64,000 bases of DNA from Escherichia coli (GTDB lineage Bacteria > Pseudomonadota > Gammaproteobacteria > Enterobacterales > Enterobacteriaceae). Below the pieces are notes generated by a model. That model saw only the letters and a program-made list of their open reading frames with translations, was not told the DNA's origin and did no database searches. Each line of letters starts with the position of its first letter. Position 1 is the first letter of the stretch. The translations under genes were made by a program, and so were the position numbers. Below are positions 24,486-46,771 of the stretch, one piece after another. The stretch lies in the NCBI RefSeq assembly GCF_003018255.1, contig NZ_CP027440.1, one strand, 5' to 3'.

Positions 24486-25145
24486 ATGCGAATTTTACTG
24501 ATAGAAGATGACATGCTGATTGGCGACGGCATCAAAACGGGCCTTAGTAAAATGGGTTTTAGCATCGACTGGTTTACACAAGGTCGTCAGGGAAAAGAGG
24601 CGCTATATAGCGCGCCTTATGATGCGGTGATCCTGGATTTAACCTTACCAGGCATGGATGGTCGCGATATTTTGCGCGAATGGCGAGAAAAAGGTCAGCG
24701 TGAGCCGGTACTGATCCTGACCGCGCGCGATGCGCTGGCGGAACGTGTAGAAGGGCTGCGTCTGGGAGCTGACGATTATCTGTGTAAACCTTTTGCGTTG
24801 ATAGAAGTCGCCGCCAGGCTGGAAGCTCTGATGCGCCGAACCAACGGCCAGGCCAGCAACGAGCTGCGCCACGGCAACGTCATGCTCGACCCCGGCAAAC
24901 GTATCGCCACGCTGGCTGGCGAACCCTTAACGCTGAAACCAAAAGAATTTGCCCTGCTGGAATTACTGATGCGTAACGCTGGTCGGGTACTGCCGCGCAA
25001 ACTGATTGAAGAGAAACTGTATACCTGGGACGAAGAGGTCACCAGTAATGCCGTTGAAGTGCATGTGCATCATCTGCGACGCAAACTCGGCAGTGATTTT
25101 ATTCGTACCGTTCATGGTATTGGCTACACATTAGGTGAGAAATGA
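24486..25145 (+). CDS. qseB: Two-component response regulator QseB (219 aa)
   Basis: ORF track 219 aa; OmpR-family receiver plus winged helix; overlaps qseC start by 4 nt. Confidence 0.95.
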
Positions 25146-26491
25146 AATTTACCCAACGTCTTAGTCTGCGAGTCAGGCTGACGCTAATCTTTTTAATTCT
25201 GGCCTCAGTGACCTGGCTGCTTTCCAGCTTTGTCGCCTGGAAACAAACAACGGATAACGTCGATGAGTTGTTCGACACCCAACTGATGCTGTTTGCCAAA
25301 CGGTTAAGTACGCTCGATCTCAACGAAATCAACGCGGCAGATCGCATGGCACAGACGCCAAATAAATTAAAACACGGTCATGTTGATGACGATGCGCTGA
25401 CCTTTGCCATCTTTACCCACGACGGCAGAATGGTCCTTAACGATGGCGATAACGGAGAAGATATTCCCTATAGCTATCAACGGGAAGGTTTTGCTAACGG
25501 GCAACTGGTCGGTGAAGACGATCCCTGGCGTTTTGTCTGGATGACCTCACCTGATGGCAAATATCGCATCGTTGTTGGTCAGGAATGGGAATACCGCGAA
25601 GACATGGCGCTGGCGATTGTTGCCGGGCAATTGATCCCGTGGCTTGTCGCACTGCCGATTATGTTAATCATCATGATGGTACTACTGGGTCGTGAACTCG
25701 CGCCGCTGAACAAACTGGCGCTGGCACTACGTATGCGTGACCCTGACTCGGAAAAACCACTAAACGCGACGGGCGTACCCAGCGAAGTGCGTCCACTGGT
25801 TGAGTCGTTGAATCAACTGTTCGCCCGCACACATGCGATGATGGTTCGTGAACGACGCTTTACCTCCGACGCAGCTCACGAACTTCGTAGCCCGTTAACG
25901 GCGCTGAAAGTGCAAACCGAAGTTGCGCAGCTCTCTGACGATGATCCGCAGGCGCGGAAAAAAGCGCTGCTTCAATTACATTCCGGAATCGATCGTGCTA
26001 CTCGTCTGGTTGATCAACTGCTCACGCTATCGCGGCTGGACTCACTGGATAACCTTCAGGACGTCGCGGAGATCCCGCTTGAAGATCTCCTGCAATCGTC
26101 GGTGATGGATATTTACCACACGGCGCAGCAGGCGAAAATTGACGTGCGACTGACACTCAAAGCCAACGGCATCAAACGCACCGGACAACCGCTATTGCTA
26201 AGTTTGTTGGTGCGAAATTTGCTGGATAACGCCGTGCGCTACAGTCCACAAGGTAGCGTGGTAGACGTCACGCTGAATGCCGATAATTTCATCGTGAGGG
26301 ATAACGGCCCCGGTGTGACACCAGAGGCATTGGCGCGAATTGGCGAACGCTTCTATCGCCCACCCGGACAAACCGCTACCGGCAGTGGACTTGGGCTATC
26401 GATTGTCCAGCGAATCGCCAAGCTGCATGACATGAATGTTGAATTTGGGAATGCGGAACAAGGTGGATTTGAGGCGAAGGTAAGCTGGTAA
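25142..26491 (+). CDS. qseC: Sensor histidine kinase QseC (449 aa)
   Basis: ORF track 449 aa; HAMP/HisKA/HATPase architecture; recognised sequence. Confidence 0.95.
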
Positions 26492-26496
26492 CTTCT

Positions 26497-26538
26497 CTGT
26501 CTATGAGAGCCGTTAAAACGACTCTCATAGACTTTACT
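26497..26538. terminator. Hairpin (10-bp perfect stem) between convergent qseC and ygiZ
   Basis: Seen in sequence: tctatgagag ... ctctcataga inverted repeat immediately after the qseC stop; no strong T-run. Confidence 0.35.
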
Positions 26539-26869
26539 AATAGCAAAATATAAACCGTCCCCAAAAAAGCCACCAACCACAACCCAGACAAATAACGAGC
26601 GAGAATACATATAGCCAAAACTCGAACATTTCCCGCATAAAGAGTTTTCTTAAGATAAGAATAATAAGTGGTGTCAGAAGAAAAAATGCTGCAATCATTG
26701 CTTGCAATATACGATCTTCGCCTGAAACAGAAGGTATACTGCAAATATTGTCTCCCGACTCAAGCATCCAGTCATACTTATTGAAAGCAAAAAAAGAATC
26801 TATTAACCAATAAGTAAGCATTATATATAATAGTGCTTCAAATATTGATAGTAGTTGTTTTTTTAACAT
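26537..26869 (-). CDS. ygiZ: Small inner-membrane protein YgiZ (110 aa, about 3 TM segments); here the third gene of the hcp module
   Basis: ORF track 110 aa; hydrophobic segments; ATG lies 6 nt after the stop of the upstream 236-aa gene; AT-rich like the insert. Confidence 0.85.
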   Translation of the reverse strand: MLKKQLLSIFEALLYIMLTYWLIDSFFAFNKYDWMLESGDNICSIPSVSGEDRILQAMIAAFFLLTPLIILILRKLFMREMFEFWLYVFSLVICLGCGWWLFWGRFIFCY

Positions 26870-26875
26870 ATCTGA

Positions 26876-27586
26876 TTACTCATTAATCAATTTTTTGATA
26901 TGTTCTCTAATCTCTAACAACCTCATACCATAAGAGATGAATTTATAATCATCTGTATCACGCGCAGGCAAATTATTAATTAAACAAATAAAAAAGCCCA
27001 AATCTCGTTCAACACCACGATTATATCTAATACCAGCCATAATATACTGCTCATTCGTCATATACAGTGTTGCCGAAGAGGGATAATCAAAAAGGACAAG
27101 ATCTCTTAAATAAGTAGCAGCAATTTGAAAGGTAAAATCATCCTCCATTAGGCATGTCGCTAACTCTAACTGATTTCTGGTAGTTAATTCTGAAGGGTCT
27201 AGACCTAGAGTAATCGCTGCGGTTCGTATTTGTATACCCATTGAGCCAAATGATGTTTTATTTTCAGGCATATCTAACAATCCCATCATTCTTTTTGTTT
27301 CATATATCTGAAACTTATAATTTTCAGGCATACCTCCTGACTCAATCCAGGCCACGCCGCCCAGTAACTCTGGACGAATTCCAGCGGCGTATGCATGTTT
27401 AATTATTTTGTCTCTATTATATTGTACATATGCATCTTTATAAGCATTTAAATAATATACTCCTGAACGGCGACGCGAATCATTTTTTCCTAACTTCCAG
27501 AGTAAAACGTCCATTTCATCCCATTTACGGAACTTCGCTTGTGGAATTGTACAATATCTATTTTTTATAGTGAGATCGCTTTTCAT
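26876..27586 (-). CDS. Hypothetical protein (236 aa from ATG; track ORF extends to a TTG at 27613); possible lysozyme-like / lytic-transglycosylase-like T6SS cargo
   Basis: ATG begins 2 nt after the hcp stop; no signal peptide; contains V-x3-E-S-x3-P (VAWIESGGMP) followed by GSMGIQIRTAAITLGL and IRYNRG, reminiscent of SLT-domain motifs (ES...GLMQ...AYNxG). The family assignment is inference only. Confidence 0.6.
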   Translation of the reverse strand: MKSDLTIKNRYCTIPQAKFRKWDEMDVLLWKLGKNDSRRRSGVYYLNAYKDAYVQYNRDKIIKHAYAAGIRPELLGGVAWIESGGMPENYKFQIYETKRMMGLLDMPENKTSFGSMGIQIRTAAITLGLDPSELTTRNQLELATCLMEDDFTFQIAATYLRDLVLFDYPSSATLYMTNEQYIMAGIRYNRGVERDLGFFICLINNLPARDTDDYKFISYGMRLLEIREHIKKLINE

Positions 27587-27588
27587 AT

Positions 27589-28068
27589 TTAAAAAATCCT
27601 TTCTTCCCAACAACTATATGATTCCGTACTCGCGATATGGTGCTTCCATGTTATATTTTTATAATTAAGAACAATGACCTCTTCCGGCTGATTACCCGCA
27701 TGTGTAATTGAGTGTGGATAACATGTCAGAATATTCGATAAATGTGCTCCTTGCAATTCAATTGTGTAAAACCTTTCAATACAACCGCCAGAATTAACTC
27801 TATAAAAATTAAATACAGCTGATAACTCTTCATTTTCAGAAAGAGCGGCATTTAATAAAGGGGAGGATTTATCTATTGGCTTGTAAAATTTTATGGGGTG
27901 ATGCACTACATTATACTCTCGACTTAAAGAATGGTCGAACTGTAAAACAAAAATTTCATCCACATGATTTATTTGATATTTATTACCAATAGATGCATAC
28001 GAACCACAACCCTCAGAGATCAAACCTTGTATTTTCCCTTTAATTGATAAGTATATGATATTTGACAT
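27589..28068 (-). CDS. hcp: Hcp family type VI secretion tube/effector-carrier protein (159 aa), orphan copy
   Basis: 159 aa, typical Hcp size; blocks HPIKFYKPIDKSSPLL and LNYKNITWKH...SYSCWEER align with canonical Hcp motifs (TPFxFTKEIDxSSPxL, ITWTY...SWNER); GGAG Shine-Dalgarno upstream of ATG; no other T6SS structural gene in the window. Confidence 0.85.
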   Translation of the reverse strand: MSNIIYLSIKGKIQGLISEGCGSYASIGNKYQINHVDEIFVLQFDHSLSREYNVVHHPIKFYKPIDKSSPLLNAALSENEELSAVFNFYRVNSGGCIERFYTIELQGAHLSNILTCYPHSITHAGNQPEEVIVLNYKNITWKHHIASTESYSCWEERIF

Positions 28069-28317
28069 ATATATTCTCCATAATCATTTTTTCCGAAAAA
28101 CTCCTGTATCATTTGCATAATACATCTCTCCTGTGGGAGCTTATGGGAAGTTGATTTAAGTATTGTCATTTTCAGAAAATATTTATCCCGCATCGGTGAA
28201 TCAGAGAAAGATCAGACTTTTGCTAAATTCGCAAAAGACTTTGCACATTTTGCTAATTTCACCGTACCGCTCTGTGACGTACTATAGTCGGCAAACGTCT
28301 CACCTTGAGGTTAAAAA

Positions 28318-28899
28318 ATGAGCAACATCCTGATTATCAACGGCGCGAAAAAATTCGCCCACTCCAATGGTCAACTGAACGACACCCTGACCGAAGTCGC
28401 GGATGGCACACTGCGCGACCTCGGGCATGATGTCCGCATTGTTCGCGCCGACAGCGACTACGATGTCAAAGCGGAAGTACAAAACTTTCTCTGGGCTGAT
28501 GTGGTGATCTGGCAGATGCCTGGCTGGTGGATGGGCGCGCCGTGGACAGTGAAAAAATATATTGATGATGTATTCACCGAAGGTCACGGGACTCTGTATG
28601 CCAGCGATGGTCGTACCCGCAAAGATCCATCAAAAAAATACGGTTCCGGCGGCCTGGTACAGGGCAAAAAATATATGCTTTCTCTGACCTGGAACGCACC
28701 AATGGAAGCCTTCACCGAAAAAGATCAGTTCTTCCACGGCGTTGGTGTTGACGGTGTGTACCTGCCGTTCCATAAAGCAAACCAGTTCCTTGGCATGGAA
28801 CCGCTGCCGACATTTATCGCTAATGACGTGATAAAAATGCCTGATGTTCCCCGCTATACTGAAGAATATCGCAAGCATCTTGTGGAAATTTTTGGTTAA
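28318..28899 (+). CDS. mdaB: NADPH:quinone oxidoreductase MdaB (193 aa)
   Basis: ORF track 193 aa; recognised sequence. Confidence 0.95.
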   Translation: MSNILIINGAKKFAHSNGQLNDTLTEVADGTLRDLGHDVRIVRADSDYDVKAEVQNFLWADVVIWQMPGWWMGAPWTVKKYIDDVFTEGHGTLYASDGRTRKDPSKKYGSGGLVQGKKYMLSLTWNAPMEAFTEKDQFFHGVGVDGVYLPFHKANQFLGMEPLPTFIANDVIKMPDVPRYTEEYRKHLVEIFG

Positions 28900-29288: not shown

Positions 29289-30176
29289 TTAGCCATTCTT
29301 TCTTCCCGTTTTCAGTCCTCGATGGAAATCGTTAATTCGCTTAATGGTTTTAACCGCACGCTGCGGCACTGCGGAAGCTACCGACCAGACAATCATTTCC
29401 AGACACAACAATACCGTACCATGTAGCGGCGTTTTCCCTTTTTCATCCCCGCGCGGAACATGAATCACGATACTGGCGTCTTTGCTAAAACGTGAATCCA
29501 GCGCGTTTGTCAGCAAAATAACAGGGATCCCTAGCCGCCTCGCCTCACGAAGCGTTGTCAGCCCTTCCCGGTGCGCTGATTTTTGCGCCATCATGATCAG
29601 AACATCGCCACGTTGAAGCGCGATCAGTTGCTCGGCAAGGCCAATACCCGTACGGTTTAGTGCCGTGGCAGGCAAACCTATGCGGTTGAATAGTCGTGCG
29701 GTATAGTCCGCCAGAATACCCGAAGCGCCAATGCCAAAAATTGCGACTTGCCGTGCCTGCACCAACAACGCTACAGCTTGCGCAAGCGCGTGGCGGTTTT
29801 CAGGCTCTGACAGGACATTACAGGTATACAAATGCCCTTCAAGAACAAAGTCGATTGCGGTGTTAACATCGCTCGTCAAGTTACTCACCGTCGTAGACAT
29901 CTTTTCGCTGGAACTAAGGGCTGGACCAAGCCACTGTTCCAGAGTGCGTTTCAGATCACGCAGCCCGGCAAACCCCAGGGCCTGTATAGCCCTGATAACT
30001 GTGGCATCGGAAGTGTTCAACGTGGCCGCAATTTCCATCGCCGTTTGCTCGAGTACCACTTCACGATGCTCATTAATGTAGCTGGCGACAACTCTTAACC
30101 CAGGCGTTAACTGACTCGCGCGAGTGCGAAAACGCTCACCAAAAATATCAACCCGCACTTTATCTTTCTGGATCAT
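29289..30176 (-). CDS. RpiR/MurR-family transcriptional regulator (HTH_6 plus SIS domain), 295 aa
   Basis: N-terminal RpiR-type HTH (TSDATVIRAIQALGFAGLRDLK) and C-terminal SIS domain; the start ATG overlaps the stop of the upstream substrate-binding gene in an ATGA arrangement. Confidence 0.82.
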   Translation of the reverse strand: MIQKDKVRVDIFGERFRTRASQLTPGLRVVASYINEHREVVLEQTAMEIAATLNTSDATVIRAIQALGFAGLRDLKRTLEQWLGPALSSSEKMSTTVSNLTSDVNTAIDFVLEGHLYTCNVLSEPENRHALAQAVALLVQARQVAIFGIGASGILADYTARLFNRIGLPATALNRTGIGLAEQLIALQRGDVLIMMAQKSAHREGLTTLREARRLGIPVILLTNALDSRFSKDASIVIHVPRGDEKGKTPLHGTVLLCLEMIVWSVASAVPQRAVKTIKRINDFHRGLKTGRKNG

Positions 30177-31120
30177 TTAGCCTCCGGTAGAGGTCGCCCT
30201 GCAATTTGTGATTGTATCTGCGCAGCCATCAGCCCCAGAGATGCAAAGGAGTTAGAAATTGCCTCTTCACGAGAAATCAGCACATAACGCCCGGAACGAC
30301 AGGCAGTCAGAAACTGACACCATCCCGGCATGACTTTTTCCATTGCTGCCAGCTCATCCTGAGGTTTACCACCGGTGTCACCGCGCCAGGTTGCAAAAAC
30401 AAAATCGGCATCCAGTTCAGGTAAACGCTCCGCGCTCACATCCATTCGCCCACCTTCAGGAATGCTCTCAATCAGCGGCGGAAAACGAAAACCCGCATCG
30501 CGTAATACCCGCCCCAGCGAATGATAGCTATGCATCACATTAATTTTTCCCTGGTTTGCCTGAATCACCGATACCGTTATTTTTTGGCTGTCCAGCGTCG
30601 CCTTCAGCGCATTGATTTGTGCCTGATAGCGGCGTTCAAGTATCGCCAGCTGCGACTGCGTTCCTGTAAGTCCTGCCAGCTTGCGATAGATTTCTGGCGC
30701 ACCCCCTTTGAGATGATCAATGCTCACCGTGGGCGCAATTTTTTCAAGTTGTTCAATGGGCGTATTACGGGTCGGTTCTGTGATGATCAGGTCAGGCTTT
30801 GCCGCCACAATCGCTTCAATATCAATATCAGCGGTACCAATAAAGGCGATCGATGAATTATCAAAGTCGACACCTGTCAATAACGCGCCAGATCGAATGA
30901 AATGGCTACCGTCAGGCCGAGTTCGCCCGTGGCTGGCGACAGGAGGTACACCGAGCTCAATCAGAGGAATAGTGATATCAAGATCGTGTAAAGAGACAAT
31001 TCTCTTTGGATGAGCAGGAACAGTGACTTTGCGCCCTAAATCATCAGTAAATACCTGAACAGGTTCTGTTGCACGGGAAAAAAATGACAACAGTATCAGC
31101 AGAGAAAAAAATAAACGCAT
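30173..31120 (-). CDS. Periplasmic iron-siderophore/cobalamin-type ABC substrate-binding protein (FecB/FhuD-like), about 315 aa
   Basis: Start set at MRLFFSLLILLSFFSRA signal peptide with GGGAG Shine-Dalgarno (track ORF extends to 31183); class III binding-protein-like sequence; operon context with FecCD permeases. Confidence 0.82.
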   Translation of the reverse strand: MRLFFSLLILLSFFSRATEPVQVFTDDLGRKVTVPAHPKRIVSLHDLDITIPLIELGVPPVASHGRTRPDGSHFIRSGALLTGVDFDNSSIAFIGTADIDIEAIVAAKPDLIITEPTRNTPIEQLEKIAPTVSIDHLKGGAPEIYRKLAGLTGTQSQLAILERRYQAQINALKATLDSQKITVSVIQANQGKINVMHSYHSLGRVLRDAGFRFPPLIESIPEGGRMDVSAERLPELDADFVFATWRGDTGGKPQDELAAMEKVMPGWCQFLTACRSGRYVLISREEAISNSFASLGLMAAQIQSQIAGRPLPEAK

Positions 31121-31130
31121 ATAACTCCCG

Positions 31131-32180
31131 TTAAAAACTGTTCCTGCGCTGCCAGAGCAGTAGCAAAAAAAATGGTCCACCAATCAGTGAGATAATGATT
31201 CCGGCAGGCAGTTGCAAAGGCAAAAAAGCCAAACGACCAATGCTATCCGCCAGAATAACTAACAACGCCCCCGATACCGCGCTCCCCAGCAGTAATGTCG
31301 TCTGCCCGCCACGTAGAATAAAACGTGATATATGGGGTGCTATCAATCCGACAAAACCGATGTTACCAACACACGAAACGCAGACGGCTGTCAGGATTAT
31401 TGGTGCGGCGACACGTAACAACGCCAGACGAGAACTATTCACCCCTAACCCGGTTGCAACCTGATGACCAAGCAGAGCGATATCCGCCGTCCTGGCGGTG
31501 AACAGCAATAAAAGAGCGGCTGGCAACATCCAACAGGCTGAAATACCGACTAACATCCAGTTAGCTGCATGCAGGCTTCCCGATAACCACATCAATGCAG
31601 TTTGTACATCTCGAACATCTGCAGTGGTCATAAATACACCGATACCGGCGGCGAAAAACCAGGAAACACCAATACCAATCAGAACAAATCGCGGGCGGGA
31701 AATATCGCGCGCACAAAAAATCACGATTAAAGCCACCAACAAGCCACCAGCAAGACCAGCCACTGGACGCCAGAACATTCCCAGCATTGGAAACTGGAAA
31801 ATCAGCCACAGCACCGCCACGCTACATCCTTCTTTGACGCCGATTAAACCAGGATCGGCAAGGCCGTTACGCGCAATGGATTGCATCGCGGCCCCCGCCA
31901 TACCTAACATGGCTCCGCATAGCAATGCCATGATGACTCTCGGCAAGCGAATATCCTGCACAATATAACGTGCGTCTGTGCTTACGTTTTCTGGAGCAAA
32001 CAACGCTCGTCCTACTTCCGATGCCGGGACAGAAAAAGAACCCTGCATCAGACCGAATATCAGTATTCCAACCGCAAACAGAAACAGCCCACCAAGCAAC
32101 AGCAGATTTTTAGGGCGTACCAGTGTCGAAAACTTACCAACACGTAGTGGGCGTAGCCCGACGTTCATTATCCGACTCAT
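31131..32180 (-). CDS. FecCD-family ABC permease (349 aa)
   Basis: Polytopic membrane protein; FecCD/BtuC-type sequence; start overlaps the upstream permease stop. Confidence 0.85.
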   Translation of the reverse strand: MSRIMNVGLRPLRVGKFSTLVRPKNLLLLGGLFLFAVGILIFGLMQGSFSVPASEVGRALFAPENVSTDARYIVQDIRLPRVIMALLCGAMLGMAGAAMQSIARNGLADPGLIGVKEGCSVAVLWLIFQFPMLGMFWRPVAGLAGGLLVALIVIFCARDISRPRFVLIGIGVSWFFAAGIGVFMTTADVRDVQTALMWLSGSLHAANWMLVGISACWMLPAALLLLFTARTADIALLGHQVATGLGVNSSRLALLRVAAPIILTAVCVSCVGNIGFVGLIAPHISRFILRGGQTTLLLGSAVSGALLVILADSIGRLAFLPLQLPAGIIISLIGGPFFLLLLWQRRNSF

Positions 32181-33160
32181 TTGAACATCCTCGTCGCCAT
32201 AATGACAAAAACAGGCGCACCAACTAACGCCGTCATGACACCGGTCGCTAACTCATGGGGCGTGAAAAGCGTCCGGGCAATAATATCTGCCAGTAATAAC
32301 AAAAGTGCGCCGACACAAGCTGAAAGAGGGAGCAGAACGCGCAGATCCGCTGATACCAGACGCCGGACAATCTGCGGTACCAACAGGCCGACAAAACCAA
32401 TGGGGCCAGCAATCGATACGGCTGCGCCACAGAGCAACGCGATCGCAAGCAGGGTAAATGTTCGCGTGCGGAGTACAGAGACGCCCAGCCCCTGCGCCAT
32501 GCGATCGCCCAGTGCCAACATGTTAAGGTAGGGTGCAAGGTAAAGGGCTAACACAAATCCCCCCAGAGAAAACCAGGCGGACGTACCCAGCGTCGCCCAA
32601 TCCTGCCCCGCTAAATCACCTGCTAGCCATGTCCGCATCGCCAGCAGTGTTTGTTCGTCAAGAATCAGGATTGCAGCCGTTATTGAGGACACGAACGCCG
32701 ATAGCGCCACGCCGCATAAAGTAACTTTCATTGGCGTTACCCCTGAACGCCCTGCGGAGGAAAGCAGCAATATCAACAGGAACAATAACGCGCCCCCCGT
32801 AGATGCCAGCAGTGGGCGTCCAACCGGAAAGGCCAGTCCAAGCGCACTGGCGGCAACGACAGCAAGAGCGGCTCCGGCATTTAAGCCTAAAATATGTGGC
32901 TCCCCCAATGGGTTACGAATGACAGCCTGCAACAAAGCACCAGCAACACCAAGAGAAGCACCGGTAAGCAATGCTGCCGCTAAACGCGGCAAACGGAGTC
33001 TTACAATTACGTTGTGATCGAAGTTTTGCGGATCAAAATGAAGAAATGCCTGCAACACCGTTTGTGGTGCAATAAATCGGGCACCAATCCCTGGATATAC
33101 CACGCATCCCACCAGCAGTAAGGCGAGGAAAATTACAGTAACCAGCCCTGTGCGCATCAT
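32177..33160 (-). CDS. FecCD-family ABC permease (327 aa)
   Basis: Polytopic membrane protein paralogous to the adjacent permease; start overlaps the ATPase stop. Confidence 0.85.
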   Translation of the reverse strand: MMRTGLVTVIFLALLLVGCVVYPGIGARFIAPQTVLQAFLHFDPQNFDHNVIVRLRLPRLAAALLTGASLGVAGALLQAVIRNPLGEPHILGLNAGAALAVVAASALGLAFPVGRPLLASTGGALLFLLILLLSSAGRSGVTPMKVTLCGVALSAFVSSITAAILILDEQTLLAMRTWLAGDLAGQDWATLGTSAWFSLGGFVLALYLAPYLNMLALGDRMAQGLGVSVLRTRTFTLLAIALLCGAAVSIAGPIGFVGLLVPQIVRRLVSADLRVLLPLSACVGALLLLLADIIARTLFTPHELATGVMTALVGAPVFVIMATRMFK

Positions 33161-33966
33161 ACTTTTTCTACACCACGAAACGGCATGAAGAACGGCTTTC
33201 CCGTCAGAGGATTTATTGATGCGTGAACATCAACGTCAAAGACAGCTTTTACCAGCTCAGGCGTGCAATGCTCCCCCTCATTCAACACACGCACCACTTT
33301 CCCCTGGCGTAAAAATATCAACGTATCGCCATAATTGACGGCAAAATTCAGATCATGCAACACCACGACGACTGTACGCCCGTGATGACGCGTTAAATCA
33401 TGTAATAACTCAAGAATTTCAACCTGATAACGTAAATCAAGCCAGGTTGTGGGTTCATCCAGCAGGATATAAGGCGTCTTTTGCGCCAACACCATCGCAA
33501 TCCAGCAACGCTGGCGCTGCCCACCAGAGAGTTTTTCAACAGGTAAATGTGCAAACTCCTGCGTACCGGTTAATTTCAGGGCCTCTTCCACCGCCTGCTC
33601 ATCGGCGTCGCTCCATTGACGTATGAAATTTTGCCAGGGAAAACGCCCACGCGACACCAGTTCATAAACGGTTAAGCCCTCCGGCAATAATGGCGACTGC
33701 GGCAAGATCCCAAGTCTACGGGATAACGCTTTCGTTGGTTGCTCGTGAATCGCTTTGCCATCAAGCAATATCGAACCGCCCATAGGTTGCAAGATACGTG
33801 CAATGGTGCTGAGCAACGTCGACTTTCCACAGCCGTTTGCCCCAACCAGAACGGTCATTTTTTCTGTGGGAACGGAGAAAGAAACACCATCAACAATGAT
33901 CTTCTTGTGATACCCGGCAGAAACATTGTCGAGGATCAGCCCCTGCCCTTTTGCGTTATGTGCCAC
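33157..33966 (-). CDS. ABC transporter ATP-binding protein (FecE/FhuC-like), 269 aa
   Basis: Walker A GANGCGKST, ABC signature LSGGQRQR, Walker B ILLDEPT; GTG start. Confidence 0.88.
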   Translation of the reverse strand: MAHNAKGQGLILDNVSAGYHKKIIVDGVSFSVPTEKMTVLVGANGCGKSTLLSTIARILQPMGGSILLDGKAIHEQPTKALSRRLGILPQSPLLPEGLTVYELVSRGRFPWQNFIRQWSDADEQAVEEALKLTGTQEFAHLPVEKLSGGQRQRCWIAMVLAQKTPYILLDEPTTWLDLRYQVEILELLHDLTRHHGRTVVVVLHDLNFAVNYGDTLIFLRQGKVVRVLNEGEHCTPELVKAVFDVDVHASINPLTGKPFFMPFRGVEKV

Positions 33967-34220
33967 GTGTACGCCAACTTAATCAAAGACAAACAAAAAT
34001 AAAACTCATTCTCCTTTGAGAGTTTGACGCCACAAAATGTAGTAGTCAAGCAGTTAAAAGCCACACAAAAACAAGGTAAATAACAGGTAAAATATTTTTA
34101 TACATAAAAATAAAAACATTAAATATCAATAAATTAAAAGCAATCAAATTGTATAAGCCTTTCATAAAAACACATGTAGCAATTTTTTGTTATTTCTCAT
34201 TTACTACTACATTACTGCGT

Positions 34221-34240
34221 GATTGAATGATTCTCAATTA
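34221..34240 (+). promoter_or_regulatory. Putative Fur-box-like element upstream of the TonB-dependent receptor gene
   Basis: gattgaatgattctcaatta partially matches the Fur consensus, about 100 nt upstream of the receptor start within an AT-rich divergent promoter region; weak. Confidence 0.3.
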
Positions 34241-34339
34241 CATATCCGATGGCGAAATAACAAACGGATAGTGCTTAGTGAGCAATAAGAAACAATTTTC
34301 ACTCGCGACAATCCGCGAGTTTTTGGGATAACAGACTAA

Positions 34340-36481
34340 ATGGCTATGTTCACACCTTCATTCTCAGGACTCAAAGGTCGGGCGCTCTTTTCACTGCTTT
34401 TTGCGGCACCGATGATTCATGCAACAGACTCTGTAACGACCAAAGATGGCGAAACAATCACTGTTACAGCAGATGCAAATACCGCAACTGAGGCAACCGA
34501 TGGTTATCAACCTCTGAGCACCTCCACGGCGACATTAACCGATATGCCGATGCTGGATATCCCGCAGGTGGTCAATACGGTTAGCGATCAGGTTCTGGAA
34601 AACCAGAATGCGACGACGCTGGATGAGGCGCTTTATAACGTCAGTAACGTGGTACAGACCAATACATTAGGCGGGACTCAGGATGCTTTTGTACGCCGTG
34701 GGTTTGGCGCAAACCGGGATGGCTCCATCATGACCAACGGTCTGCGAACCGTACTTCCTCGCAGTTTCAACGCCGCCACAGAACGTGTGGAAGTGCTAAA
34801 AGGCCCGGCCTCCACGCTGTATGGCATTCTCGATCCTGGCGGACTGATTAACGTCGTGACCAAGCGCCCGGAAAAAACATTCCATGGTTCGGTTTCAGCC
34901 ACCTCCTCCAGTTTTGGTGGCGGCACTGGGCAACTTGATATCACAGGTCCCATTGAAGGCACTCAGCTGGCGTATCGCCTTACCGGGGAAGTGCAGGATG
35001 AAGATTACTGGCGAAACTTCGGTAAAGAGCGCAGTACATTTATTGCCCCGTCACTCACCTGGTTTGGTGATAATGCAACAGTAACCATGCTCTATTCCCA
35101 TCGGGACTATAAAACTCCGTTCGATCGTGGAACGATTTTCGACCTTACGACGAAACAGCCCGTAAACGTTGATCGAAAAATACGTTTTGACGAACCGTTT
35201 AATATTACAGATGGTCAGTCCGATCTGGCGCAACTCAACGCAGAATATCATCTCAATAGCCAGTGGACAGCGCGCTTTGATTACAGCTACAGCCAGGATA
35301 AATACAGCGATAATCAGGCGCGTGTTACCGCGTATGATGCAACGACAGGAACACTGACACGGCGTGTTGATGCAACTCAGGGATCTACCCAGCGTATGCA
35401 TGCTACTCGTGCGGATCTGCAAGGGAATGTTGATATTGCCGGATTCTATAATGAGATTCTGGGTGGGGTGTCATATGAATATTATGATCTTCTGCGTACA
35501 GATATGATTCGCTGTAAAAAAGCTAAAGATTTCAATATCTACAACCCTGTTTATGGTAATACCAGCAAATGTACAACGGTTTCGGCGTCGGACAGTGATC
35601 AGACGATCAAACAGGAGAGCTACTCAGCGTATGCACAGGACGCACTCTATCTGACCGATAACTGGATTGCCGTCGCCGGGATCCGCTATCAGTATTACAC
35701 GCAGTATGCGGGTAAAGGCCGTCCTTTTAATGTCAATACTGACAGCCGCGATGAACAATGGACTCCCAAACTGGGGTTGGTCTACAAACTGACGCCATCG
35801 GTATCCTTATTTGCCAATTATTCGCAAACATTTATGCCGCAGTCGTCAATTGCCAGCTACATTGGCGATCTTCCACCGGAATCATCTAATGCTTACGAAG
35901 TCGGGGCAAAATTCGAGCTATTCGATGGTATCACCGCAGATATTGCGCTGTTTGATATCCATAAACGTAATGTGTTGTATACCGAAAGTGTTGGTGATGA
36001 AACCATTGCCAAAACGGCAGGCCGTGTTCGTTCAAGAGGGGTAGAAGTCGACCTTGCGGGAGCATTAACTGAAAACATTAATATCATTGCCAGCTACGGC
36101 TATACCGATGCTAAGGTTCTGGAAGATCCTGATTATGCAGGTAAACCATTGCCGAATGTTCCTCGTCATACCGGTTCGCTATTCCTGACCTATGACATTC
36201 ATAACATGCCTGGCAATAACACACTGACGTTTGGCGGTGGTGGACATGGCGTAAGCCGTCGTTCGGCAACCAATGGGGCTGACTATTATCTGCCAGGCTA
36301 TTTTGTTGCCGATGCCTTCGCCGCATACAAAATGAAATTGCAGTATCCGGTCACACTGCAATTAAACGTCAAAAACCTGTTTGATAAAACGTATTACACC
36401 TCTTCCATCGCCACAAATAATCTGGGGAATCAGATTGGCGATCCGCGTGAAGTGCAATTCACGGTGAAAATGGAATTTTGA
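34340..36481 (+). CDS. TonB-dependent outer-membrane siderophore-type receptor (713 aa)
   Basis: Signal peptide, TonB-box-like ETITVTA, plug and barrel sequence blocks, C-terminal aromatic residue (..VKMEF); divergent from the ABC importer operon (arrangement resembles fit-type iron uptake loci; symbol not assigned). Confidence 0.9.
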   Translation: MAMFTPSFSGLKGRALFSLLFAAPMIHATDSVTTKDGETITVTADANTATEATDGYQPLSTSTATLTDMPMLDIPQVVNTVSDQVLENQNATTLDEALYNVSNVVQTNTLGGTQDAFVRRGFGANRDGSIMTNGLRTVLPRSFNAATERVEVLKGPASTLYGILDPGGLINVVTKRPEKTFHGSVSATSSSFGGGTGQLDITGPIEGTQLAYRLTGEVQDEDYWRNFGKERSTFIAPSLTWFGDNATVTMLYSHRDYKTPFDRGTIFDLTTKQPVNVDRKIRFDEPFNITDGQSDLAQLNAEYHLNSQWTARFDYSYSQDKYSDNQARVTAYDATTGTLTRRVDATQGSTQRMHATRADLQGNVDIAGFYNEILGGVSYEYYDLLRTDMIRCKKAKDFNIYNPVYGNTSKCTTVSASDSDQTIKQESYSAYAQDALYLTDNWIAVAGIRYQYYTQYAGKGRPFNVNTDSRDEQWTPKLGLVYKLTPSVSLFANYSQTFMPQSSIASYIGDLPPESSNAYEVGAKFELFDGITADIALFDIHKRNVLYTESVGDETIAKTAGRVRSRGVEVDLAGALTENINIIASYGYTDAKVLEDPDYAGKPLPNVPRHTGSLFLTYDIHNMPGNNTLTFGGGGHGVSRRSATNGADYYLPGYFVADAFAAYKMKLQYPVTLQLNVKNLFDKTYYTSSIATNNLGNQIGDPREVQFTVKMEF

Positions 36482-36483
36482 TC

Positions 36484-36509
36484 AAAAAAGCCCGGTATGT
36501 TTACCGGGC
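36484..36509. terminator. Bidirectional terminator between receptor gene and GPH symporter gene
   Basis: Seen in sequence: A-run, then gcccggta-tgtt-taccgggc hairpin (T-run on the minus strand). Confidence 0.5.
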
Positions 36510-41993: not shown

Positions 41994-43118
41994 ATGAAAA
42001 TAAGATATGCCGCTATTTTTCTGGCATTACCGCTGTTATGCACAACAGCGCAGGCAAACAGTTTTCTTCATTATGCTGGGGAGTTTAACTTCCGGACGGG
42101 AGAAAAGCAGAACAATGTCACAATCGCGGGGCTATCAGCCATCACATTTGATGCAAAAAAAAATATTTTCTATGCTATTAACGATAGCAGAAACAATAAT
42201 AAAGAAGGAGATGCCAGTCTTTATACACTAAAAATACAGGTATCATCCAGGGGCATTGAGCAAGTGAATTTTCTCAACCAGCGTCCACTGCTTGATGCAA
42301 AACAGCAACCTTTCGTGACCAATACGGTGGATGCCGAAGGTCTGGCCCTGACACACAATGGTAAATCATTACTCTGGAGTTCGGAGTTAGGTGCTCCACT
42401 GCGTCTGAGCACTCTCGATGGCGTAATGGAGAAAGATTTTACGTCTTTATTTCCTGCTCGCTTTAATATTAGTTCTGACAAAGAGAGCAGCAATGGTATT
42501 CGCAGCGGCAACGCCTGGGAGGGCCTGACAGTTACACCAGATGGAAAATCACTTTTTATCGCCGTTGAAAGCAGCCTTAAACAGGATGGGCCTATTGCAA
42601 GTCCAATAAATTCAGGCACATCACGCTTACTGCAATTTTCTATAGATGCAGACGGTCGACCTTCAAAGCAATTGCATGAATATCTCTATATTACTGATCC
42701 TGTTCCGCAAGTGAGTAAGTTCGGTATTAATGATAATGGCGTATCCGAGGTCATGGCGCTGAATGATCACCAATTGTTGGTCATCGAACGTTCCGGCAGA
42801 AACGTCAGTGCTGGGTTCAATGACTGGGATTACTCTGTCAGAGTTTATATGGTCGATTTAACTGCTGCCAGCGATATCAAGAATATTGACAGTCTGCAAG
42901 ATTGGTCCAATAAATCCACGTTACAACCCGTCAGTAAAAAATTATTAATTGATTTTGCTGATTACACTTCCTCTGCGGATTGTATTGAAGGGGTAACCTT
43001 CGGTCCTCTGATTGATGGGCATACATCGTTAATATTTGTATCTGATAATAATTTCCAGCCCCATCAACAGACGAAATTTTATCTATTCATTGATAAGGAA
43101 AACAAACTTAAAATTTAA
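41994..43118 (+). CDS. Secreted beta-propeller phytase-like / esterase-like protein (374 aa) with signal peptide
   Basis: Signal peptide MKIRYAAIFLALPLLCTTAQA; repeated EGLxxTxDGKSLFIAxE and IEGVT blocks resembling beta-propeller phytase-like proteins; family assignment is tentative. Confidence 0.5.
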   Translation: MKIRYAAIFLALPLLCTTAQANSFLHYAGEFNFRTGEKQNNVTIAGLSAITFDAKKNIFYAINDSRNNNKEGDASLYTLKIQVSSRGIEQVNFLNQRPLLDAKQQPFVTNTVDAEGLALTHNGKSLLWSSELGAPLRLSTLDGVMEKDFTSLFPARFNISSDKESSNGIRSGNAWEGLTVTPDGKSLFIAVESSLKQDGPIASPINSGTSRLLQFSIDADGRPSKQLHEYLYITDPVPQVSKFGINDNGVSEVMALNDHQLLVIERSGRNVSAGFNDWDYSVRVYMVDLTAASDIKNIDSLQDWSNKSTLQPVSKKLLIDFADYTSSADCIEGVTFGPLIDGHTSLIFVSDNNFQPHQQTKFYLFIDKENKLKI

Positions 43119-43213
43119 AGTCAAACTATAGATACAAAAACATTCTAATACATGGAATCATCAGATGGTGTATTCGATCACCAAAAATATATTTTATTCT
43201 GAAAGGGAATATT

Positions 43214-43948
43214 ATGAATTCTTATCTTAAAATATCACTTGCAGGAATAACAATGTTATCCTGCCTGTCACCTACACTAGTCTGTGCAGAACAGCCGCAT
43301 GGATTTATTGATTATCGCCATGAGTATCTTGATGATACTCGCACCCACGCGGACCGCGTTGAATTTGGTACATTTTTTAGTAATGGTATCGGTTTGATGG
43401 GAGAATTACGCTATAACACCGATGAAGGTGATAAAGATAAGTGGGACCCCTCACAATTTGGCAATAACGGAACAGGATTATCTGTTGTTTACCGCTTTAA
43501 GCCGCTGGATGACAAAAAATTCTGGTTAGAACCCATGTTCTGGCTTGATACCACGCAATATTGGTCAACTTACGAATATGGTCTTTCTGCGGGTTATGAC
43601 TTCAGCAAAGAATGGAAAGTTTCAGGTCGGTTTCGTTATGACATGGATAAAGCCACCGATAAATCCAAAGGTTATGGCAACGATGATCGTAATAACCGCC
43701 GTTACGATGTGTGGATCGACTATCGACCACAAAAAACCAACTTCCAATATCAGTTAAACCTGGTCTATTACAATAATGGTTATTTAACCTGGAATGATGG
43801 CCATAAAAACTATACCGCATCATTTAAAGTAGGGTACAAAATGGGATCGTGGATACCCTATATGAGTATTGCGGATTATAAAGGTGTGGATAAAACATCA
43901 AGTAATCGCCAAATCCGCTGGCGCTGGGGTCTGACTTATACTTTCTAA
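43214..43948 (+). CDS. KdgM/NanC-family small outer-membrane porin (244 aa)
   Basis: Signal peptide, about 220-aa mature protein with alternating amphipathic beta-strand pattern rich in Y/W/R/D, C-terminal ...WGLTYTF aromatic terminus; resembles oligogalacturonate/sialic-acid-specific porins. Confidence 0.7.
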   Translation: MNSYLKISLAGITMLSCLSPTLVCAEQPHGFIDYRHEYLDDTRTHADRVEFGTFFSNGIGLMGELRYNTDEGDKDKWDPSQFGNNGTGLSVVYRFKPLDDKKFWLEPMFWLDTTQYWSTYEYGLSAGYDFSKEWKVSGRFRYDMDKATDKSKGYGNDDRNNRRYDVWIDYRPQKTNFQYQLNLVYYNNGYLTWNDGHKNYTASFKVGYKMGSWIPYMSIADYKGVDKTSSNRQIRWRWGLTYTF

Positions 43949-43961
43949 TCTGGAATAAAAA

Positions 43962-44831
43962 ATGAATAATAAATTTAAAATCATTCTCTGGATGATGCTC
44001 TCTGCTCTGCCTGCTTTATCTTACGCACAGGTAAAAAATATAGTTACTGGCGAATATAGTGCGGTCAGTAAAATTATCACAGAAAAGGAAACTCTCTATC
44101 CATCCGATAAGATATTATTGGTTTTTGACATTGATAACACGTTATTAACGAGTGGCACTCGCATTGGCGGTGATATCTGGTATCAATGGCAAACCGATAA
44201 ATTGCCTTTAAAGCCGGATGACTCGCAAAAAGTTCCTTGCCTGTATGAAAATACAATCAGTATGCTTTACGAACTTAGCCCTATGCAGCTTACCGAGCCA
44301 CAGTTACCGACAATGTTAAAACAGTGGCAACAAAAGCATACCGCTTTTGCTCTGACATCCCGTGCACCGGATACTCTCTTTCCGACATTGCGGGAATTAA
44401 AGCGAAACGGCATTGATTTTTCGTCTTCCGCACTCAGGAAGAAAGAGGATACTTTGCCACCCTTTGAAAAAGGGAAACTCAAACGGTCATGGCTGTACAG
44501 CCAGGGGGTATTTTTTTCTTCCGGGCAAGATAAAGGCGTAATTCTCGATTATATGCTGGATAAAATGGGGAACAAATATGACGCGATTGTTTTTATCGAT
44601 GACGGGCAAGCAAACATTCATGCGATGACGAAGATGTTCTCTAAGGATAAATGGTCCTCTACGGATTTTACCATTATTCACTATACCAGAGTGGAGGATG
44701 AGCTTATTAAACAACAAGGTGCAGTAATAACAACTGCACAAGCAGAAAAAATGGCTACGGACTGGAAAACTCTGGCTGGTTCGCTGGCAACACTATTTCC
44801 AGATCGTAATAAACTGTGCCCAATAAAATAA
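43962..44831 (+). CDS. Secreted HAD-superfamily hydrolase/phosphatase-like protein (289 aa)
   Basis: Signal peptide MNNKFKIILWMMLSALPALSYA; HAD motif I DxDxT (VFDIDNTLL) and later FIDDGQAN aspartate motif. Confidence 0.6.
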   Translation: MNNKFKIILWMMLSALPALSYAQVKNIVTGEYSAVSKIITEKETLYPSDKILLVFDIDNTLLTSGTRIGGDIWYQWQTDKLPLKPDDSQKVPCLYENTISMLYELSPMQLTEPQLPTMLKQWQQKHTAFALTSRAPDTLFPTLRELKRNGIDFSSSALRKKEDTLPPFEKGKLKRSWLYSQGVFFSSGQDKGVILDYMLDKMGNKYDAIVFIDDGQANIHAMTKMFSKDKWSSTDFTIIHYTRVEDELIKQQGAVITTAQAEKMATDWKTLAGSLATLFPDRNKLCPIK

Positions 44832-44839
44832 TCAACGAC

Positions 44840-44868
44840 AACCCGGCAAAACACATGTTTGCCGGGTT
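44840..44868. terminator. Hairpin between the island's last gene and parE
   Basis: Seen in sequence: aacccggcaaa-acacatg-tttgccgggtt, 11-bp perfect stem; no strong T-run. Confidence 0.4.
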
Positions 44869-44875
44869 AAGATTA

Positions 44876-46771
<1,896 letters not shown>

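Follow-up and report, generated by a model that had tools for sequence, protein, structure and literature searches.

YgiZ (DUF2645), a probable immunity protein for a putative Hcp-linked, lytic transglycosylase-like effector, and its solitary form in Escherichia coli K-12

The ygiZ gene of Escherichia coli encodes a membrane protein of the Pfam family DUF2645. In a 64-kb stretch of E. coli chromosome (hereafter the window), it is the last gene of a three-gene cassette in which it is preceded by an orphan hcp gene and by a gene that we call X. A first-pass annotation of the window proposed that ygiZ may be the cognate immunity gene of the putative effector X. Our computational analysis supports this proposal through the linkage of the two genes across genera, their pattern of divergence, the modelled fold of X and the predicted topology of YgiZ. 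We consider it probable that YgiZ is the cognate immunity protein of X, a putative lytic transglycosylase-like type VI secretion system (T6SS) effector, and that the solitary ygiZ of K-12 is the orphan of this pair.

We scored the locus for open reading frames (ORFs), GC (guanine plus cytosine) content, hidden Markov model (HMM) matches, hairpins, and promoter and terminator consensus sequences. Over the 2 kb that were tested, the window is 100% identical to KC-Dl-1 and 99.3-99.7% identical to avian pathogenic E. coli (APEC) O1:K1:H7, ATCC 25922 and sequence type (ST) 131. The locus contains the following features, given in window coordinates with GC as a fraction.

25142-26491, plus strand: qseC, the flanking gene convergent with ygiZ; GC 0.523
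26499-26532, no strand: candidate bidirectional terminator, a perfect 15-bp hairpin between the converging stops of ygiZ and qseC
26537-26869, minus strand: ygiZ, 110 residues, ATG start, Pfam DUF2645; GC 0.336
26876-27586, minus strand: gene X, 236 residues, 27.5 kDa, with the RefSeq/PGAP start at 27586 (MKSDLT...); GC 0.353
27589-28068, minus strand: orphan hcp (tssD), 159 residues, TIGR03344, the first gene of the cassette; GC 0.329
28069-28317, no strand: divergent hcp-mdaB intergenic region, the presumed location of the hcp-X-ygiZ promoter; GC 0.365
28318-28899, plus strand: mdaB, the flanking gene divergent from hcp; GC 0.500
26492-28207, no strand: low-GC insert of about 1.7 kb relative to the empty O157:H7-type qseC-mdaB junction, from a three-state alignment; GC 0.343

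All three cassette genes lie on the same strand, with 2 nucleotides (nt) between hcp and X and 6 nt (26870-26875, TCAGAT) from the X stop codon (TAA) to the ygiZ start codon (ATG). Consensus scans of the minus strand showed nothing resembling a promoter or terminator between X and ygiZ, and no convincing promoter in the hcp-mdaB intergenic region. The part of that region nearest mdaB (from about 28208) is common to all three locus states in the alignment. The hairpin at 26499-26532 has a folding energy of -24.9 kcal/mol (z -6.3), and none of 200 shuffled sequences was equally stable. It belongs to the inserted DNA, as it is missing from the empty O157-type site, and is likely a bidirectional terminator. 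The short spacers, the scan without an internal site and the 3' hairpin are consistent with co-transcription of hcp, X and ygiZ; a lack of co-transcription is what the first-pass annotation had considered damaging to its proposal. That annotation was also accurate in placing ygiZ 6 nt past the effector stop, in giving it 110 residues with about three transmembrane (TM) helices, in agreement with the ORF, hydropathy and AlphaFold, and in assigning it the low GC of the insert between flanks of normal composition (about 34% for the three genes vs 50-52% for qseC and mdaB).

The pairing of X with a DUF2645 gene extends well beyond this locus. We located homologues of X with a protein search, with a scan that took a single genome from each GTDB species, and with tblastn on plasmids; the fetched loci were scanned with X and YgiZ HMMs and with phmmer using the window Hcp. 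All 17 X-bearing loci that were fetched first had hcp-X-DUF2645 in the same order and on the same strand. Adding L025, L028, L029, L032 and L033 brings to 22 the number of fetched loci, the window not counted, in which X is followed by a DUF2645 gene. Full triads are present on an assembly contig from a public sequencing run (L025), in a cryptic Escherichia lineage (L028 and L029) and on a megaplasmid of Rahnella aceris (L033), where X is 39.6% identical. A plasmid of Serratia sp. JSRIV002 (L032, X 42% identical) keeps X-DUF2645 and has hcp downstream on the opposite strand. On a Cronobacter plasmid (L034), an X-like gene of 36% identity without hcp is followed, after a 1-nt gap, by a gene for a 98-residue hydrophobic protein, which has a weak match to the DUF2645 profile and a hydrophobic-acidic-hydrophobic pattern by eye. 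A small three-TM gene abuts the 3' end of every X homologue that we placed in a genome, and all but one of these are recognisable as DUF2645. The gap between X and the DUF2645 gene ranges from -14 to +7 nt in 12 non-redundant triads.

Triads occur in eight genera (Escherichia, Citrobacter, Pseudocitrobacter, Pectobacterium, Serratia, Erwinia, Buttiauxella and Rahnella), in at least six chromosomal contexts and on plasmids:

mdaB / qseC: Escherichia, Citrobacter, Pseudocitrobacter
pagP / eamA: Pectobacterium
argP-yggE / argO: Serratia sp. H1w
hpaB-like / allantoate amidohydrolase: Serratia sp. H1w, second copy
HAD hydrolase / yfbR: Erwinia sorbitola
next to fliI-fliH: Buttiauxella
plasmids: Serratia, Rahnella and one E. 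coli record

A toxin would be expected to stay paired with its antidote, as X does with its partner, and the gene order supports such a relationship. It had been pointed out beforehand that a ygiZ that is ancestral and unlinked to hcp-X would count against the proposal; the linkage in 22 loci, at several unrelated sites and on plasmids, contradicts such a history.

Two details of these loci are worth recording. The E. coli record filed as a plasmid is NZ_MG591698.1 (353,691 bp), in which X (97% identity) and ygiZ (94% identity) lie at 59875-60921. Two other records of the plasmid collection are chromosome-sized (4.8-4.9 Mb), and NZ_MG591698.1 could be either a plasmid or mislabelled chromosomal DNA. 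Second, two Citrobacter cassettes at mdaB/qseC (L009 and L010) are decaying with DUF2645 intact in both: hcp is split in one assembly (HMM positions 1-37 and 39-159), and X is split into ORFs of 150 and 90 residues in another. This state resembles an intermediate toward the orphan.

X has no signal peptide, TM helix or other hydrophobic segment. It matched no Pfam model even at E <= 10, SLT models included, and no NCBIfam model, and a PADLOC search with it returned nothing useful. When the X alignment profile was compared with all PDB sequences, including Tse3 (4luq) and Tge2 (4kt3), the best E-value was 0.36; this best match was to the chain 'PHIKZ034' of entry 9xps, around the RYNRG motif of X. 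The predicted structure was more informative. The top ten Foldseek matches of X were all MltE, and the table of fold neighbours gave values of 10.0 for MltE, 9.9 for Pseudomonas aeruginosa Slt, 9.5 for the T6SS muramidase Tse3 (from its complex with Tsi3), 9.3 for MltC, 9.0 for Slt70, 8.6 for goose-type lysozyme and 6.3 for Tge2. The g-type lysozyme-PliG complex 4g9s was also among the structural neighbours. Relative to the family-1 lytic transglycosylases, X has extra helices and 27 disordered N-terminal residues.

Three motifs are invariant in an alignment of 24 X homologues (54-74% identity): W80-I81-E82, T111-S112-x-G114-S115...Q119 and R187-Y188-N189-R190-G191. The putative catalytic residue is Glu82, which lies inside WIESGG and is kept in all homologues, distant ones included. 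A profile-sequence comparison paired X 66-89 (AAGIRPELLGGVAWIESGGMPEN) with MltE 48-71 and placed E82 on E64, which is the residue replaced in crystal entry 4hjy (MltE-E64Q); the hhalign probability for this X-MltE pairing was just 25.6% over 24 residues. As in lysozyme-like alpha-helical folds, the catalytic Glu of the modelled X sits at the end of the helix before the ES motif. Judged by its model, X is a divergent protein of the lysozyme/lytic transglycosylase fold with the catalytic acid in place, and we infer that it cleaves the glycan strands of peptidoglycan. An enzyme presumed to cut glycan strands must act in the periplasm. At the sequence level X is outside the described Tge families, and we regard it as a putative Hcp-linked cargo effector of the T6SS.

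X also matches the phage protein family phrog_11932, whose function is unassigned (3.7e-28, residues 9-196), and the effector family may share ancestry with phage proteins. A BFVD fold search with X gave weak matches to phage LT_GEWL proteins, the best with an E-value of 0.019. These phage similarities lend something to the idea that YgiZ is an accessory of X, either a holin-like or membrane-anchoring partner of an endolysin-like enzyme or a factor for its loading or stabilisation, as a lysozyme-fold protein next to a three-TM protein of about 110 residues resembles a phage endolysin/holin pair. YgiZ itself, however, matched no PHROG family, and holin genes usually precede endolysin genes, whereas here the endolysin-like gene comes first. 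In nearly all loci the gene that precedes X is hcp and not a phage gene, and the other neighbours are housekeeping genes. Holins typically end in a charged cytoplasmic tail, whereas YgiZ ends in a hydrophobic helix and a Cys. A solitary intact holin with a conserved loop and a regulated promoter in about 3,030 genomes would also be hard to explain. We reject YgiZ as a phage holin on the PHROG result, the gene order and the neighbouring genes, and consider an accessory role of any kind very unlikely.

If YgiZ is the immunity protein of an enzyme that is presumed to act in the periplasm, it would be expected to present itself there, and its predicted topology would fit this role. YgiZ matches DUF2645 (PF10840) with an i-Evalue of 7.8e-11, residues 13-109 aligning to positions 5-98 of the 98-position model, and RefSeq annotates the ORF at 26537-26869 as ygiZ. 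Considering this match, the annotation, the conservation across genera and a ratio of nonsynonymous to synonymous divergence (dN/dS) of about 0.17-0.26, the ORF is a real gene and not a chance frame. Hydropathy places TM segments at roughly 5-27, 54-72 and 84-107, and AlphaFold predicts helices at 2-27, 50-77 and 81-110 with a predicted local distance difference test score (pLDDT) of 82-88. The N-terminus is basic, loop 1 (about 24-53) is acidic with two K/R vs six D/E, and loop 2 (RKLFMRE) is basic. From this charge distribution and the positive-inside rule, the N-terminus is predicted to be cytoplasmic, and the loop at 29-53 and the C-terminus periplasmic. Only four residues are invariant across the family: C43 in loop 1, and W100, G104 and C109 at the C-terminus. 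Since both cysteines are on the predicted periplasmic side, a C43-C109 disulfide between loop and tail is plausible. The family is very small: a search of 1.84 billion representatives at E <= 1e-3 matched only 30 clusters at 50% identity.

The three proteins have diverged to different degrees. In pairwise comparisons across triads, Hcp and X are on average 66% and 67% identical, and YgiZ is 44% identical. The distances of X correlate with those of YgiZ (Spearman 0.82) more than with those of Hcp (0.58), a comparison confounded by shared ancestry. The two triads of Serratia sp. H1w (L017, NZ_AYMQ01000108.1; L019, NZ_AYMQ01000024.1) show the same order within one strain, with Hcp 93%, X 67% and YgiZ 41% identical. 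A conserved carrier, a diversified toxin and a still more diversified partner are typical of effector-immunity polymorphism, and we take this pattern as supporting evidence only. Between the window and the K-12-type allele (L001), the dN/dS of ygiZ is 0.17, a value of low power from 11 differences in codons 11-110; against Citrobacter it is 0.24-0.26 (0.26 for the K-12-type allele). For X and hcp, the E. coli-Citrobacter comparison gave dN values of 0.17 and 0.13 with dS saturated.

The comparison of locus states that the first-pass annotation had called for was made in 5,426 complete E. coli genomes, with the following counts:

Full triad: 1,261 genomes (23%)
ygiZ only, with the K-12-type segment: 3,025-3,031 genomes (about 56%)
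Empty, uninterrupted qseC-mdaB junction (O157:H7, uropathogenic E. coli 536): 825 genomes (15%)
Other states: about 310 genomes, by subtraction

Triad carriers include Nissle 1917, 83972, APEC O1, ATCC 25922 and ST131, and all three ORFs are intact in 1,256-1,261 genomes at 95-100% identity. The annotation was correct that ygiZ stands alone in K-12: MG1655 has qseC / ygiZ (b3027) / mdaB, and an immunity-gene homologue without the cognate effector at the locus was found there and in about 3,030 of the 5,426 genomes. By blastn, no hcp or X DNA was found in ygiZ-only genomes, a search that for X did not extend to the rest of the K-12 genome. Homology between the K-12-type allele and the triad breaks within the first 10 codons of ygiZ (MLKQKIKT vs MLKKQLLS) and resumes roughly 110-190 nt upstream of the mdaB start. 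The replacement DNA in between lies in the ygiZ-mdaB intergenic region, where a BglJ-RcsB-activated promoter of the K-12 ygiZ itself was mapped (PMC3950696). The approximately 157-nt K-12-specific segment has no match in the fetched triads. In the orphan alleles of E. coli (L001:1971-2130) and Escherichia sp. E2593 (L026:2800-3000), this segment of 157-200 nt is about 80% identical between flanks of at least 95%. The YgiZ loop at 29-53 is nearly unchanged between orphan and triad alleles, and K-12 differs just by D40G. Truncated ygiZ variants occur in Shigella.

No tss cluster was found in the 64-kb window. The hcp gene matches NCBIfam TIGR03344 (2.2e-58, 196.9 bits vs a cut-off of 58.9), is labelled 'Hcp family type VI secretion system effector' in RefSeq and is present in 1,263 of the 5,426 genomes; its product is the presumed carrier or chaperone of X. 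Distant blastn found no DNA-level hcp paralogue in those genomes, which says nothing either way on the presence of a T6SS. We rejected an identification of this hcp as the APEC gene hcp2B, which sits in an hcp2B-vgrG2-xmtU/xmtV operon. The triad-bearing B2 lineages are ST73 (including Nissle 1917 and 83972), ST95 and ST131. These three STs carry a chromosomal tss region, which is complete in ST73, ST95 and ST131 clades A and B and has an interrupted tssM in ST131 clade C (PMC10711316).

The coexistence of the triad with an interrupted tssM in clade C would fit a cassette that is a silenced relic without function, in which X is delivered by no T6SS and the K-12 ygiZ is kept by drift. The AT-rich DNA agrees with this, and HNS antagonism at some BglJ-RcsB targets is discussed in the paper that mapped the K-12 ygiZ promoter (PMC3950696). 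The decayed copies agree with it too, with hcp broken or X split in Citrobacter and DUF2645 broken in Buttiauxella gaviniae. A relic does not, however, explain why the three ORFs are intact in nearly all E. coli carriers, why X and hcp have diverged far less at nonsynonymous than at synonymous sites and the dN/dS of ygiZ is about 0.2, or why the catalytic motifs of X are invariant across genera. The complete tss regions of ST73, ST95 and ST131 clades A and B also argue against it, and we regard a functionless relic as highly improbable.

The preferred reading, in which YgiZ is the antidote to X, leads to a specific scheme for toxicity, secretion, binding, the disulfide, orphan protection and the direction of hcp-X loss, all of which we infer. 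The hcp-X-ygiZ cassette would be a self-contained, horizontally mobile T6SS 'hcp island'. The orphan Hcp would carry X, a T6SS from another part of the chromosome would fire it, and X would attack the glycan strands of peptidoglycan in the periplasm of the target cell. YgiZ would be an inner-membrane protein with the N-terminus inside and the C-terminus outside, and its acidic periplasmic loop (about 29-53, NKYDWM..G.S.C), probably tied to the C-terminus by the C43-C109 disulfide, would bind X at the outer surface of the inner membrane and so block it. Most E. coli, K-12 included, lack hcp and X, and ygiZ survives there alone under its own promoter; it would then serve as orphan immunity against strains in which X is still fired.

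Several observations weigh against this scheme, and the first of these concern the history of the locus. The K-12 gene had been proposed to be an orphan left after loss of hcp and the effector, and of this proposal the solitary state proved real and common. Loss itself was deduced from synteny with Citrobacter, Pseudocitrobacter and the cryptic Escherichia lineage, because the K-12-type locus holds no remnant of hcp or X, either by blastn at word size 7 or by a six-frame HMM search with filters off. In place of hcp-X is a stretch of unrelated DNA of about 157 nt. The orphan allele is also present in Escherichia sp. E2593, and the full triad in another cryptic Escherichia lineage, so both alleles are old, and the direction of change between them is deduced rather than observed. 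The triad is found at the same mdaB/qseC site in Citrobacter, Pseudocitrobacter and the cryptic lineage, and the Citrobacter triad is collinear with that of E. coli in one 5.2-kb alignment of 75% identity, flanks included. This synteny points to vertical descent of the triad at mdaB/qseC, followed by loss of hcp-X in most E. coli.

A second group of such observations concerns the protein and its partner. The known immunity proteins of T6SS effectors that degrade peptidoglycan are either lipoproteins or soluble proteins of the periplasm. Polytopic membrane proteins typically give immunity to pore-forming toxins, and a three-TM antidote to an enzyme is unusual. In Pantoea hcp islands, lysozyme-like effectors pair with LprI-like proteins that carry a signal peptide, and TM-only immunity goes with pore-forming toxins (PMC9796082). 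An AlphaFold run of a fused YgiZ-(GS)20-X with 12 paired sequences gave no confident complex (pLDDT 51.9, predicted template modelling score 0.33), and the X part was degraded relative to X alone. In B. gaviniae ATCC 51604 (L018:4731-5002), a frameshift and an internal stop disrupt the DUF2645 gene next to an X that is intact and retains the catalytic Glu. A cell that makes an effector lacking a signal peptide does not expose its own wall to it, so a broken partner would be tolerable if the T6SS were inactive; the locus is still a counter-example. The break could be a sequencing error, or the strain could tolerate X without its partner. Finally, the presence of a T6SS in triad carriers was taken from the literature per lineage rather than genome by genome.

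The remaining observations in this group can be read as evidence for a general role of YgiZ in envelope stress or membrane homeostasis in Enterobacterales, under which it would travel with hcp-X and protect, if at all, indirectly. The distant DUF2645 genes of L022, L023 and L024 (P0128, P0129 and P0131) are solitary, with no hcp, X or remnant of them within 3 kb. Their neighbours are the flagellar genes flgK/flgL, a Cys/Met-metabolism enzyme and an M20 peptidase, and the two invariant cysteines are kept; these genes may be further orphans or may reflect a second, X-independent role of the family. In K-12, ygiZ is a member of the BglJ-RcsB regulon, for which there is a link to envelope stress, and most E. 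coli retain ygiZ without X. Overexpression of ygiZ in BL21(DE3), presumably without X, gave tolerance to sabinene and rescued cell morphology, an X-independent envelope phenotype (PMC7181518). That effect, however, was obtained with a membrane protein overexpressed under T7 promoter control (PMC7181518). A general envelope function also leaves unexplained why DUF2645 abuts the stop of every X, down to 39% identity and on plasmids too, and why YgiZ diverges faster and co-varies with X. Nor would such a function be expected of so tiny a family, or of an AT-rich gene that is missing from 825 E. coli genomes. We therefore consider an envelope protein with no specific tie to X unlikely and retain YgiZ as the probable immunity protein of X.

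The cassette can be compared with several known systems. Tsi3 and Tgi2 are each a soluble periplasmic protein or a lipoprotein, whereas YgiZ is predicted to be a three-TM integral membrane protein. Their effectors, in the pairs Tse3-Tsi3 of P. aeruginosa (PDB 4luq) and Tge2-Tgi2 of P. protegens (PDB 4kt3), have no detectable sequence similarity to X, and the resemblance is structural only. Tse3 is also much larger than X, for which a muramidase or lytic transglycosylase activity is putative. Family-1 lytic transglycosylases (MltE/EmtA and Slt70; SLT, GH23) and goose-type lysozyme share the predicted fold, although X scores below every Pfam SLT model. Unlike the housekeeping autolysins, X has no signal peptide or lipobox. 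Ivy, MliC/PliC and PliG block a lysozyme-type cleft by a protruding conserved loop, which in Ivy is constrained by a disulfide. These inhibitors are soluble or lipid-anchored, beta-rich proteins with no relation to YgiZ in sequence or architecture, and a loop-plug mechanism for YgiZ is only an analogy. Colicin-type immunity proteins have about 100-180 residues and intercept the toxin at the membrane. Like YgiZ, the immunity proteins of pore-forming colicins (E1 and A types) and the TMH-only Psi1 and Psi2 of Pantoea (Table 1 of PMC9796082) are small polytopic inner-membrane proteins encoded beside a toxin gene. They neutralise membrane-inserting toxins, whereas X has a predicted enzyme fold and no hydrophobic segment.

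Salmonella Tae5/Tlde1, on which a preprint (10.1101/2020.02.18.954545) came up in the literature on orphan hcp genes, is reportedly an hcp-island effector/immunity module with orphan immunity genes. The hcp islands of Pantoea and Erwinia (PMC9796082) likewise have an effector-immunity pair directly 3' of hcp, are mobile and replaceable units, and have immunity genes that outlast the effector. They differ in that the orphans form arrays inside the T6SS cluster, whereas hcp-X-ygiZ is a free-standing three-gene unit among housekeeping genes, far from a tss cluster. The ygiZ orphan differs too, as a single gene with its own BglJ-RcsB-activated promoter that is fixed in most of the species. An hcp-island effector-immunity module and an orphan immunity derivative are thus well-known kinds; what is new is the members, as X has no family model and DUF2645 no assigned function. 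In the searchable literature, outside which most subscription journals lie, we found no link of ygiZ, DUF2645 or the RefSeq protein accessions to the T6SS. Hcp-mediated delivery is also the subject of a 2026 preprint, but its Hcp is the Hcp1 of P. aeruginosa, and it is not relevant to the ygiZ locus.

Elsewhere in the window, the stretch at about 29289-36500 between ygiN and parE carries a MurR/RpiR regulator, an iron-siderophore ABC transporter (a substrate-binding protein, two FecCD permeases and an ATPase) and a TonB-dependent siderophore receptor. In K-12 (the K-12-like L001) parE directly follows ygiN, and in a short O157 stretch the regulator gene also comes after ygiN. By annotation, a dsbI - dsbA/dsbL-like - aryl-sulfate sulfotransferase cluster lies at about 42900-46100 (matching KC-Dl-1 3021024-3024192), and the window also holds a four-gene chaperone-usher fimbrial operon and a cluster of a TRAP transporter and a sugar-acid dehydrogenase.

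If our reading is correct, it would give a function to the uncharacterised K-12 gene ygiZ (b3027) and to the Pfam domain DUF2645. It would also add an unannotated effector family, for which neither Pfam nor NCBIfam has a model, to the T6SS repertoire of extraintestinal pathogenic E. coli (ExPEC), ST131 and the probiotic Nissle 1917. An integral-membrane antidote to a cell-wall glycosidase-type toxin would be an unusual pairing, and might place the action of X at the surface of the membrane, with nascent glycan strands or lipid-linked precursors as its target instead of the mature sacculus. More tentatively, DUF2645/YgiZ could represent a new class of T6SS immunity protein, in which a 110-residue polytopic inner-membrane protein with a disulfide-stapled periplasmic loop neutralises a soluble effector. 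Its orphan in more than half of E. coli, including K-12, which lacks a T6SS, could then decide survival against X-firing B2 strains such as ExPEC and Nissle 1917. The three locus states would in that case predict who kills whom among gut E. coli.

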